A stretch of 56,700 bases of DNA, from the NCBI RefSeq assembly GCF_003334255.1, contig NZ_QOWU01000034.1; one strand, given 5' to 3'. Numbering within the stretch: position 1 is the stretch's first letter; every line of letters starts with the position of its first letter. The notes under the pieces were generated by a model. It ran no database searches. It worked only from the letters and a program-made list of their open reading frames with translations, and was not told the DNA's origin. This stretch comes from Escherichia coli. GTDB lineage: Bacteria; Pseudomonadota; Gammaproteobacteria; Enterobacterales; Enterobacteriaceae. Of this stretch, positions 21,030 to 36,891 are shown in pieces. The translations under genes and the position numbers were made by a program.

Positions 21030-21056
21030 TGCAAAATTGCCCTGAAACAGGGCAAC
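21030..21056 (-). terminator. Rho-independent terminator after ubiX
   Basis: Minus-strand ttgccctgtttcagggcaa hairpin followed by ttttgc, directly after the ubiX stop. Confidence 0.8.
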
Positions 21057-21063
21057 AGCGGAG

Positions 21064-21633
21064 TTATGCGCCCTGCCAGCGGGCAAAGAGATCTTCAGGA
21101 AGGGTTATCGCAAACTGGTCAAGAACACGATTAACCGTCTGATTTATCACATCATCAAGGGATTGCGGGCGATGATAAAACGCCGGAACGGGAGGCATAA
21201 TCACCGCACCGATTTCTGCCGCCTGAGTCATTAAACGCAGATGGCCTAAGTGCAATGGTGTTTCACGCACGCAGAGCACCAACGGGCGACGCTCTTTCAG
21301 CACCACATCTGCCGCACGGGTCAGTAAGCCATCAGTATAGCTATGGACAATGCCGGAAAGGGTTTTGATTGAACAGGGTAAAATCACCATCCCCAGCGTC
21401 TGGAAAGAACCGGAAGAGATGCTGGCGGCAATATCGCGCGCATCGTGCGTGACATCGGCTAATGCCTGCACTTCGCGCAGAGAAAAATCCGTTTCGAGGG
21501 ATAAGGTCTGGCGCGCTGCCTGGCTCATCACCAGATGCGTTTCGATATCTGTGACATCGCGCAGAACCTGTAATAAGCGCACGCCATAAATCGCGCCGCT
21601 GGCACCGCTGATGCCTACAATGAGTCGTTTCAT
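21064..21633 (-). CDS. ubiX: Flavin prenyltransferase UbiX
   Basis: 189-aa flavoprotein ORF with N-terminal GISGASG motif. Confidence 0.93.
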   Translation of the reverse strand: MKRLIVGISGASGAIYGVRLLQVLRDVTDIETHLVMSQAARQTLSLETDFSLREVQALADVTHDARDIAASISSGSFQTLGMVILPCSIKTLSGIVHSYTDGLLTRAADVVLKERRPLVLCVRETPLHLGHLRLMTQAAEIGAVIMPPVPAFYHRPQSLDDVINQTVNRVLDQFAITLPEDLFARWQGA

Positions 21634-21727
21634 AAATAGTTGCCCTGTCAGACTTGCAGGCAGACTTTGCAGGATTTCGGCGGGAGTTGCAAGTCAGGGT
21701 GCCAGACCGGCACCCTCAGCGAAGGCA

Positions 21728-23245
21728 TCATCCTTCGTTATGCATTTCGAGATTTTCCACTTCGTTCTGACGTTGCACTGCTTTGGCGTCATCATTACGT
21801 AACGTATCGAGGAAATCGAGGTAGCCCTGATCAACATCTTTGGTGACGTAGACGCCGTTGAACACCGAGCATTCAAACTGCTGGATATCCGGATTTTCAG
21901 CGCGAACGGCGTCGATCAGATCGTTCAGATCCTGGAAAATCAACCCGTCAGCACCGATGATCTGGCGAATTTCATCAACTTCGCGACCGTGAGCGATCAG
22001 TTCCGTGGCGCTCGGCATATCAATACCATAAACGTTCGGGAAGCGAATTTCCGGTGCCGCAGAAGCGAGGTACACTTTCTTCGCTCCGGCTTCGCGTGCC
22101 ATCTCGATAATCTGCTCAGAAGTGGTGCCACGGACGATGGAGTCGTCGACCAGCAGGACGTTTTTATCGCGGAACTCGGCGCGGTTGGCATTCAGTTTAC
22201 GGCGCACGGACTTACGACGCAGCTGCTGGCCCGGCATGATAAAGGTGCGGCCAACATAGCGGTTTTTAACGAAGCCCTGGCGGTACGGTTTGCCCAGAAT
22301 ACGAGCAATTTCCAGCGCGATATCACACGAGGTTTCTGGGATCGGGATCACCACGTCGATATCCAGATCTTCCCATTCGCGGGCAATTTTCTCGCCCAGT
22401 TTCGTGCCCATATTCACACGCGCGCTGTAAACGGAAATTTTGTCGATAAACGAGTCCGGGCGGGCAAAGTATACATACTCAAACAGGCACGGATTGCTGA
22501 CCGGATTGTCAGCACATTGACGGGTAAACAACTGCCCTTCTTCAGTGATGTAAATCGCTTCGCCCGGCGCGACGTCACGCAGGAAATCAAAGCCCAGCGT
22601 ATCGAGCGCTACGCTTTCGGAAGCGACCATATATTCTGTACGGTTCTCGTCAATATCACGTTTTCCCAGTACCAGCGGACGAATCCCGTTTGGATCGCGG
22701 AAAGCAACCATACCGTGGCCGATAATCATCGCCACACAGGCATACGCGCCGCGGATTAAGCGGTTTGTGGCAGCAATGGCAGCGAAAATATTGTCGGCTT
22801 CCAGCGGGTAGTGGCGGAAGTTGTCCAGCTCGCTGGCGAAGATATTAAGCAGAATTTCCGAGTCGGAAGTGGTGTTGATGTGGCGGCGTTTTTCTTCAAA
22901 CAGTTTTTTACGCAACTCGTGAGCGTTGGTCAGATTGCCGTTGTGGGCAAGCGTAATGCCATACGGGGAGTTAACGTAAAACGGCTGCGCTTCAGAGGCG
23001 CTGGAGCTGCCAGCCGTGGGGTAACGCACATGACCAATGCCCATATTGCCCTGCAAACGCTGCATATGGCGAGCTTCAAATACATCGCTCACCAGCCCGT
23101 TCGCTTTACGCAAACGGAAGCAGTTATTGGCATCTATGGTGATGATGCCGGCGGCATCCTGACCGCGATGCTGAAGCACCGTTAAGGCATCATAAATCGA
23201 CTGGTTAACCGGCATAACACCGGCGATACCGACAATACCGCACAT
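21728..23245 (-). CDS. purF: Amidophosphoribosyltransferase
   Basis: 505-aa ORF with N-terminal catalytic Cys (MCGIVGI) and PRPP-binding motif [13 protein letters not shown]. Confidence 0.96.
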
Positions 23246-23281: not shown

Positions 23282-23770
23282 TTACGCTCTGGGCAAGAAA
23301 CTTGACGAGCTTTGCAGATAATCAAAAAACCATCTGATGATAAAACTGAATTGCGGGATCAGCTGTGATTTGCTCCAGTCTTCGCTTTTCGACACCCCGG
23401 TAAAGGAGTCGAGAAAGAAGAGAATGGCAGCAACAATCAACACACCGCGCAACGCACCGAAACAGACGCCCAGCACCCGATCGGTGCCTGACAACCCCGT
23501 TTTCTCCACCAACTGGCCTATCACGAAGTTCACGATAGCACCAACGATCAGGGTAGCGATAAACAGTACCGCGATGGCAATCCCATTTCGAACCAGTTCG
23601 TCTTCAAAGCCCGTAAACCAGACTGACAGGTAAGTGTAGTAATGACTGGCAACAAAGAAAGCACAACCCCATGTCACCAGCGATAACGCTTCACGAACAA
23701 AGCCGCGGATCAGGCTAACCAGAGAGGAAAAAGCAATCACCGCGATTATGGCGTAATCAATCCAGACCAT
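23282..23770 (-). CDS. cvpA: Colicin V production membrane protein CvpA
   Basis: 162-aa hydrophobic ORF upstream of purF in the same orientation. Confidence 0.92.
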   Translation of the reverse strand: MVWIDYAIIAVIAFSSLVSLIRGFVREALSLVTWGCAFFVASHYYTYLSVWFTGFEDELVRNGIAIAVLFIATLIVGAIVNFVIGQLVEKTGLSGTDRVLGVCFGALRGVLIVAAILFFLDSFTGVSKSEDWSKSQLIPQFSFIIRWFFDYLQSSSSFLPRA

Positions 23771-23826
23771 ATGTGTCCCACGATTTTACGCCCTGTCATC
23801 CTGTTCGGGGCGCATTCTAACAGAAA

Positions 23827-23842
23827 AAGAAAACGTTTGCGT
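23827..23842 (-). promoter_or_regulatory. PurR operator (PUR box) of the cvpA-purF-ubiX operon
   Basis: Minus strand reads ACGCAAACGTTTTCTT, the 16-bp PurR operator as I recall it; about 57 bp upstream of the cvpA start. Confidence 0.8.
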
Positions 23843-23904
23843 AGGGATTTCCTTCCCGCGCATCAATAAAAATGGCGCTGAAAAAATATTCAACGCCATC
23901 GACT

Positions 23905-24020
23905 TTTTATGCCTTTGCGGCATCGGGCAATGCGTGTCGGATGCGGCGTAAACGCCTTATCCGACCTACGGTTCTACCCCTGCGTAGGCCTGATAAGACG
24001 CGCCAGCGTCGCATCAGGCA
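23905..24020. repeat. BIME/REP cluster
   Basis: Tandem inverted REP units (gccggatgcggcgtaaacgccttatccgacctac ... gtaggcctgataagacgcgccagcgtcgcatcaggc) between dedD and cvpA. Confidence 0.8.
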
Positions 24021-24028
24021 AGACCGTA

Positions 24029-24691
24029 TTAATTCGGCGTATAGCCCATTACCACGCCACTTAAGCCAGAAAGTTGCTTCAACTCACCCAGCGAACCTTT
24101 CAGCTTATCTTTCGAGGCATCCGGCCCAACCAGAATACGGGTAATTTTACCCTGCACTGGCGTGGATGGCGACGTATAAACCCGATAACCGGCACCGCGC
24201 AGCTTACCGACAATCTCATTCACTTTATCGGCATTTTTCAGCGCACCCAGTTGCACAACATAGGCTTTACCCGTCGGTGCAGCTTTTTCTTCCACGACCG
24301 GCTTCGGTTCTGGCTTCGGCGCAGGTGGTGCTTCAACCTTTGGTTTAGGCGGCTCCACCGGTTTCGGCTTCGGTGGGGCGACCGGTGCAGGTTCCGGTTC
24401 AAACTCGGTGTTATTGGCTGCAATAGTGGCCGGATCGAGCGACGGTGCTGCGGCATCACCTGCCCGCACCTCTTCCGCTGCGCCTTCCGGCGGCTGCGTC
24501 GGTAACGCCTGGGTGGCGGCTGGCATCATATCAGGCTCATCACGATCGCCCGCTTTCGGCACCAGCGGGATAGCCGCGAACTCATCCTGATAATGTTTTT
24601 TCTGCCCGTCCAGCAGCCCTGGAAGTACAATCACCCCCAGCGCCACCAGCACGATCGTGCCCACTAACCGATTCTGAAACTTACTTGCCAC
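24029..24691 (-). CDS. dedD: Cell division protein DedD (SPOR domain)
   Basis: Start trimmed to GTG at 24689-24691 (220 aa) with GGAG RBS; TM helix, Pro/Lys-rich linker and C-terminal SPOR domain. Confidence 0.88.
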   Translation of the reverse strand: MASKFQNRLVGTIVLVALGVIVLPGLLDGQKKHYQDEFAAIPLVPKAGDRDEPDMMPAATQALPTQPPEGAAEEVRAGDAAAPSLDPATIAANNTEFEPEPAPVAPPKPKPVEPPKPKVEAPPAPKPEPKPVVEEKAAPTGKAYVVQLGALKNADKVNEIVGKLRGAGYRVYTSPSTPVQGKITRILVGPDASKDKLKGSLGELKQLSGLSGVVMGYTPN

Positions 24692-33391: not shown

Positions 33392-34612
33392 TTAATCTTT
33401 CAGCTTGCGCATTACCAGCGTGGCGTTGGTGCCGCCGAAGCCGAAGCTGTTAGACATAACGGTGGTCAGTTCGCGATCGGTCGTTTCGGTCACGATGTTC
33501 AGACCCGCAGCCTGCTCGTCCAGCTCTTCAATGTTGATGCTCGGGGCGATAAAGCCGTGTTCCAGCATCAGCAGAGAGTAGATAGCTTCCTGTACGCCAG
33601 CAGCGCCCAGAGAGTGACCGGTCATGGCTTTGGTTGCAGAAATCGCCGGGCTCTTATCGCCGAACACTTCACGGATAGCTGCCAGCTCTTTCACGTCGCC
33701 AACCGGAGTCGAAGTACCGTGGGAGTTCAGGTAATCGATTGGGGTATCAACGCCATGCATCGCCATCTTCATGCAGCGTACTGCGCCTTCGCCAGACGGA
33801 GCAACCATGTCTGCACCATCAGAGGTTGCGCCGTAGCCAACGATTTCAGCATAGATGTGAGCACCACGCGCCAGCGCGTGTTCCAGCTCTTCAACCACTA
33901 CCATACCGCCGCCGCCAGCGATAACGAAACCGTCACGGTGAGCGTCGTAAGTACGGGAGGCTTTTTCCGGGGTGTCGTTGTATTTAGTAGACAGCGCACC
34001 CATTGCGTCGAATTCGCAAGCCATTTCCCAGCACAGCTCTTCGCCGCCGCCAGCAAACACGATGTCCTGTTTGCCCAGTTGGATCTGCTCTACTGCGTTA
34101 CCGATACAGTGTGCGGAAGTCGCACACGCGGAGCTGATGGAGTAGTTAACGCCATGAATTTTAAACGGGGTGGCGAGGCAGGCAGAAACGCCGGATGCCA
34201 TCGCTTTGGTGACCACATACGGGCCAACCGCTTTCAGGCCGCGCGGGCCGCGCATTGCGTCAGCGCCGAACACCTGGAAACGCGGGGAGCCGCCGCCGGA
34301 ACCTGCAATCAGGCCAACGCGCGGGTTATTCTGGTAAGCTTCCGGAGAGAGGCCCGCATCAGCGATTGCCTGCTCCATAGAAAGGAATGCATAAATGGAT
34401 GCGTCGCTCATAAAGCGCACAACTTTGCGGTCAATGAGGCCAGTGGTATCCAGTTTTACGTTGCCCCAGACGTGGCTACGCATGCCGGAATCCTTCAGCT
34501 CCTGAGAGAAAGTGATCCCTGAACGTCCTTCACGCAGAGATGCCAGGACTTCCTGCTGGTTATTACCGATGCTGGAAACAATGCCCAGGCCAGTAATCAC
34601 TGCACGTTTCAT
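33392..34612 (-). CDS. fabB: 3-oxoacyl-[acyl-carrier-protein] synthase I
   Basis: 406-aa ORF with active-site Cys (SACATS) and the two catalytic His motifs of elongating beta-ketoacyl synthases. Confidence 0.96.

Positions 34613-36794: not shown

Positions 36795-36891
<97 letters not shown>

Follow-up and report, generated by a model that had tools for sequence, protein, structure and literature searches.

The purF operator of Escherichia coli is a textbook regulatory site, and PurR–DNA recognition was first defined on it. PurR is a member of the LacI/GalR family and uses hypoxanthine or guanine as corepressor. The PurR site at purF was reportedly footprinted by Rolfes and Zalkin in 1988, and purF operator DNA is said to be present in the PurR-corepressor-operator crystal structures that Schumacher and coworkers described in 1994 and 1997, reportedly in a symmetrised form derived from the consensus-like left half-site.

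Several described systems are close enough for comparison. The boxes of purT, purHD, purMN, purL, purEK and purC are 16-bp imperfect palindromes with a central CG. PurR sites are mostly located between the -35 and -10 elements and act on initiation, with purB and purR as roadblock exceptions (Cho et al., 2011, PMC3159470; review PMC6245113). The purB and purR sites lie downstream of the transcription start, in transcribed or coding sequence, where they block elongation. At the P1 promoter of carAB, the upstream PUR box is centred at -128.5, a position from which PurR alone cannot repress (PMC6245113). A more distant relative is the LacI-lacO system, which shares with PurR the protein family and the mode of DNA binding, with a helix-turn-helix and a hinge helix inserted at the central step of a pseudo-palindrome; however, LacI is released by its inducer whereas PurR needs its corepressor to bind, and the recognition sequences differ.

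The site described here lies at positions 23827–23842 on the minus strand of a 56.7-kb window, i.e., the whole stretch of E. coli DNA that was analyzed. The 16-mer ACGCAAACGTTTTCTT is present in this window as a single exact copy, and no match to it was found in 100 dinucleotide-preserving shuffles. Its left half-site (ACGCAAAC) is identical to the consensus and its right half-site (AAGAAAAC, read on the other strand) deviates from it at two positions. Accordingly, the box agrees with the perfect palindrome ACGCAAACGTTTGCGT at 14 of the 16 positions, including the central CG at 23834–23835, and has the form of a 16-bp imperfect palindrome (ACGCAAACGTTTGCGT / ACGNAAACGTTTGCNT) like the pur boxes mentioned above. 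Compared to these, the right half of the cvpA box is more degenerate, with TTTTCTT instead of TTTGCGT. The box is separated at its 3′ end from the ATG of cvpA (23770) by 56 nt, giving an offset of 57. The initial annotation had noted a minus-strand match to the canonical PUR box about 57 bp upstream of cvpA, within 23771–23900, and both the match and its distance were correct. Taking together the exact match, the weight-matrix score, the published ChIP-chip motif and the conservation, we consider it about 97% probable that 23827–23842 is the PurR operator of the E. coli cvpA-purF-ubiX operon, that is, the classical purF operator.

A scan with a PurR weight matrix, which the initial annotation had proposed as a check, ranked this site first in the window. 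The matrix was constructed from 26 PurR ChIP-chip motifs (Cho et al., 2011; PMC3159470, Table 1), leaving out both published sites that fall inside the window, so the cvpA site did not contribute to its own score of 22.13 bits. The reverse reading of the same box scored 17.4 bits with this 26-site matrix, and the best independent locus reached 12.61 bits. With all other loci at 12.6 bits or below, the scan revealed no auxiliary PUR box in the window. The score places the cvpA box among those of purB, purEK, pyrD and purL (22–23 bits), within the range of 19–25 bits covered by the classical pur operators. The exact score distribution gives a probability of 2.1e-8 per position for a 22.13-bit site. 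A 16-bp motif can of course arise by chance, and about 0.2 hits of at least 22.1 bits are expected per whole E. coli genome. Only 0.0024 such hits are expected in the window, however, and the observed one is located exactly at the promoter of the gene for the first committed enzyme of purine synthesis. Furthermore, the 16-mer is invariant in 78 of 79 species loci while the adjacent intergenic DNA has diverged, and binding has been published on the basis of both ChIP-chip and gel-shift experiments, which for practical purposes refutes the notion that ACGCAAACGTTTTCTT resembles a PUR box fortuitously and has no regulatory role. We regard such a coincidence as having a negligible probability.

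The window contains a second PurR ChIP-chip region of Cho et al., fabB-mnmC, with the motif ACCAAAGCGATGGCAT at 34195–34210 (minus strand). This motif scored 9.2 bits, a level at which about six hits in the window are expected by chance, and judged by its sequence it is indistinguishable from background.

The published PurR map lists the same 16-mer, in its plus-strand reading AAGAAAACGTTTGCGT, under the transcription unit cvpA-purF-ubiX (Cho et al., 2011; PMC3159470, Table 1). The coordinates given there, 2,428,842–2,428,857, refer to an older genome version. Window coordinates are converted to NC_000913.3 coordinates by adding 2,406,993, and the positions thus obtained differ from those of Cho et al. 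by 1978 bp, which is consistent with a shift between genome versions and with both descriptions referring to the same site. In these ChIP-chip experiments, PurR binding at cvpA-purF-ubiX gave a log-ratio of 1.77 with adenine and no peak without adenine (PMC3159470). Adenine addition was thus needed for a peak to be seen at the cvpA box, whereas purC, purMN, purT and purEK gave one under both conditions (PMC3159470). The authors attributed the earlier characterisation of the cvpA-purF-ubiX site to Makaroff and Zalkin (1985) and to Rolfes and Zalkin (1988), and reported that targets in the IMP pathway are repressed by PurR (PMC3159470). Purified PurR also causes a gel shift of the cvpA-purF regulatory fragment (PMC5829826). 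The promoter region in the window is identical to that of MG1655 base for base, and compared to the purF operator of the earlier studies (Makaroff and Zalkin, 1985; Rolfes and Zalkin, 1988) we find the same site without any difference, its sequence being that of MG1655 and of the motif in the regulon map.

To describe the position of the box within the promoter, we read the region along the minus strand, where a terminator hairpin is followed by its U-tract, GGAAATCCCT, the PUR box, TTTC, TGT-TAGAAT, a leader of about 35 nt and the ATG at 23770. The sequence suggests an extended -10 element, TGTTAGAAT, at 23814–23822, with the TG at 23822–23821 and the hexamer TAGAAT at 23819–23814; its TG is separated from the end of the PUR box by 4 nt. 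Two weak candidates for the -35 element were recognised at 23837–23843, TACGCA with an 18-nt spacer and ACGCAA with a 17-nt spacer, matching TTGACA at 3/6 and 2/6 positions, respectively. Six of the seven bases that make up these candidates are inside the left half of the PUR box. Transcription would start at 23805–23807, 7–9 nt past the -10 hexamer, which would put the box at approximately -36 to -21 relative to +1. A consensus promoter scan found no canonical -35/-10 pair near cvpA on the minus strand, since the -35 element is weak. A full-text literature search for the cvpA transcription start yielded nothing new. In the cvpA leader, GCGCCC...GGGCGU might form a hairpin, but this element was dropped from the analysis because, with a z-score of -0.2, it was no more stable than its shuffled counterparts, and an Rfam scan of the whole window gave no known RNA family.

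The box thus overlaps the probable -35 element and the spacer of a promoter that serves cvpA and, directly after it, purF. This arrangement suggests how repression might operate. When purines are abundant, a PurR dimer loaded with hypoxanthine or guanine would occupy the imperfect palindrome. Since the promoter would be a sigma-70 promoter of the extended -10 type, with its weak -35 element and most of its spacer covered by the box, bound PurR most likely excludes RNA polymerase from the promoter, and initiation would be switched off. Expression of cvpA and purF would then decrease, as would that of ubiX to the extent that it depends on read-through. When purines are scarce, corepressor-free PurR would leave the site and the operon would be transcribed. 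Such a mechanism would correspond to that of the pur regulon in general, where the boxes usually occupy the -35 to -10 interval and repression uses hypoxanthine or guanine as corepressor, as for the cvpA box. The purB and purR roadblock operators share the protein and the 16-bp motif with the cvpA box; the latter overlaps the promoter, however, and it is most likely initiation rather than elongation that is blocked there. The carAB P1 box likewise shares motif and protein, but it acts from far upstream whereas the cvpA box is promoter-proximal.

To examine conservation, species-representative genomes were scanned for CvpA, which gave 80 loci, all from Enterobacteriaceae and with CvpA sequences that are 90–100% identical. 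They include Escherichia, Salmonella, Citrobacter, Enterobacter, Klebsiella, Raoultella, Kosakonia, Buttiauxella and Cedecea. Within this family, the identical 16-mer was found in 78 of the 79 loci for which sufficient upstream sequence was available, at 54–59 nt from the ATG. The sole variant, ACGCAATCGTTTTCTT, has an A to T change; a T at this position also occurs in the tsx and glyA operators, which indicates that the change is tolerated. The box is thus retained at the orthologous promoter of relatives with a CvpA identity of at least 90%. When the 200 nt upstream of cvpA were aligned with MAFFT, the mean identity to the window sequence was 0.999 for the PUR box, 0.985 for the spacer plus -10 element, 0.90 for the leader, 0.87 for the 28 nt upstream of the box, and 0.53 for the REP/terminator side (23871–23970). 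The PUR box is therefore the most conserved stretch of the intergenic region in these approximately 80 Enterobacteriaceae loci, accompanied by the extended -10 element TGTTAGAAT, which is conserved to about 98–99% in the 80 species.

Conservation is also evident within the species. A 901-nt query around the site matched all complete E. coli genomes (5426/5426), many of them at 100% identity, in a context annotated as purF, cvpA and dedD. The 60-nt core is single-copy in each of the 5426 genomes; it is identical in 4342 of them and differs at one or two positions in the other 1084. In two of the non-identical genomes that were inspected, the differences were at 23858 and 23808, outside the box.

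The position of the box also complicates the interpretation of its conservation. Because it overlaps promoter elements, part of the conservation could reflect contacts with RNA polymerase instead of PurR. A stronger version of this argument holds that the block is retained as a core promoter (-35, spacer and extended -10) or as the site of another LacI/GalR-family regulator, with PurR binding being incidental. The overlap with the -35 element and the spacer agrees with this, as does the fact that conservation of about 99% continues through the -10 element into the leader, and that the 10 nt directly upstream of the box (GGAAATCCCT, 23843–23852, minus strand) are nearly invariant in the 80 species as well and equal the box in their degree of conservation. 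However, the -35 element is poor compared to the consensus, and contacts with RNA polymerase alone would therefore not demand an exact 16-bp palindrome-like sequence. Moreover, a matrix to which the cvpA site did not contribute scores this site as highly as the purB, purEK and pyrD operators, and PurR occupancy in vivo depends on adenine (PMC3159470). Incidental binding is thus very improbable, and we retain the assignment of the box as a genuine PurR operator.

The conserved region is larger than the operator itself. Unusual conservation extends over about 100 nt, a block that comprises the terminator hairpin, the A/T tract, GGAAATCCCT, the box and the leader (GCGCCCCGAAC...GGGCG) and in which conservation comes close to that of the box. 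The A/T tract past the terminator (ATTTTTATT) could double as an UP-like element. That the block carries a second regulatory input to cvpA-purF, such as a protein site abutting that of PurR or a leader-based control, appears unlikely to us but deserves mention.

The genes downstream of the operator have the layout of an operon. The product of purF catalyzes the first committed step of de novo purine synthesis. The genes dedD, cvpA, purF and ubiX are all located on the minus strand in the same order as in MG1655. The first gene of the operon, cvpA (23282–23770), encodes an inner-membrane colicin V production protein of 162 aa (NCBIfam NF008100 equivalog, E 9e-102; E. coli genomes carry the same annotation), which is also connected with the cell envelope and with bile resistance. 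It is followed by purF (21728–23245), encoding an amidophosphoribosyltransferase of 505 aa (TIGR01134 equivalog, E 1.6e-162), and by the annotated third gene, ubiX (21064–21633), encoding a flavin prenyltransferase of 189 aa (NF004685, E 5.6e-93). The cvpA-purF gap is 36 nt long and unstructured, the purF-ubiX gap measures 94 nt, and neither of them contained a terminator-like site according to a terminator scan and RNA folding. Just past the ubiX stop codon, a probable operon terminator is found at 21033–21057 (minus strand), GUUGCCCUG-UUU-CAGGGCAA followed by UUUU, with a folding energy of -15.1 kcal/mol and a z-score of -3.3; it failed the criteria of the terminator scan because there are only four U residues. 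In the species comparison, cvpA adjoins purF in 80/80 loci, ubiX follows purF in at least 71 of the 80, and the full order dedD-cvpA-purF-ubiX is present in 70, most of the others probably being truncated loci. The operon layout is thus characterised by a common strand, short gaps without terminators, terminators at both flanks and a conserved gene order.

An operator alone does not prove co-transcription, for which we rely on the gene layout and on published polar effects. Mutations in cvpA are reported to be polar on purF (PMC6705877, citing Fath et al., 1989), and the Pur-1 iModulon contains cvpA-purF. Co-transcription of cvpA and purF is therefore well supported. The initial annotation had proposed that cvpA, purF and possibly ubiX are co-transcribed under purine control; this holds for cvpA and purF, and for ubiX, where the case is less certain, the word "possibly" was the right caution.

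The operator might indeed govern cvpA and purF while ubiX is largely independent, either by partial termination or processing at a hairpin after purF or by use of an internal promoter. The 94-nt gap contains an 8-bp GC-rich hairpin, ubiX is missing from the Pur-1 iModulon list, which does include cvpA-purF, and in a stress meta-analysis ubiX was among the up-regulated genes whereas cvpA and purF were among the down-regulated ones. On the other hand, the hairpin lacks a U-tract, the purF-ubiX gap showed neither a terminator nor a convincing promoter, and the purF-ubiX adjacency is kept in at least 71 of the 80 species. In vitro run-off arrays gave similar sigma-70/sigma-S ratios for cvpA (1.85), purF (2.12) and ubiX (1.90), and their authors list one operon; Cho et al. 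likewise group all three into a single unit (PMC3159470), and RegulonDB-style annotation places ubiX in the cvpA-purF unit. We consider independence of ubiX a possibility to be taken seriously, although the less probable one, and purine control of ubiX remains plausible with less certainty than that of cvpA and purF. The identity of the operator is unaffected by whether ubiX is independent. The hairpin itself (AGGGUGCC...GGCACCCU, 21696–21716, minus strand) lies 12 nt past the purF stop codon. A role in RNA processing or stability, or in partial termination, is conceivable, and bears on whether ubiX expression tracks that of purF.

Upstream of cvpA, the operon is bordered by dedD and folC. An intrinsic terminator hairpin at 23871–23900 on the minus strand, with a U-tract extending to about 23863, was identified by a terminator scan and RNA folding. 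Its folding energy is -18.0 kcal/mol (z-score -5.4), and none of 200 shuffled sequences was as stable. This terminator ends the folC-dedD transcript and insulates the cvpA promoter. The terminator sequence itself, and not just its pairing, is mostly more than 90% conserved in the 80 Enterobacteriaceae species.

Between dedD and the terminator there are two opposed REP-type palindromes at 23936–23965 and 23988–24019, resembling a BIME-like pair, and the window contains related copies near 2481, 33350 and 36843–36875. The REP part of the intergenic region (23935–24020) is poorly conserved between species. For the plus strand of the cvpA-dedD intergenic region (23769–24026), an in vitro transcript running opposite to cvpA has been reported, which is sigma-S-preferred with a ratio of 1.71 (Maciag et al., 2011; PMC3141248, Table 1); a consensus scan found no plus-strand promoter in 23769–24026. 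The start of dedD on the minus strand is at TTG 24709 in the mechanically derived open reading frame (226 aa) and at 24691 in the MG1655 annotation (220 aa). With either start, dedD overlaps the end of folC (24681), which suggests that folC and dedD are translationally coupled.

The site at 23827–23842 has long been characterised and nothing in its identification is new; the confirmation shows only that a real operator can be recognised from sequence alone. A second regulatory input in the conserved block, if it does exist, might explain why PurR occupancy requires adenine at this operator and might also account for the connection of cvpA with envelope stress phenotypes.
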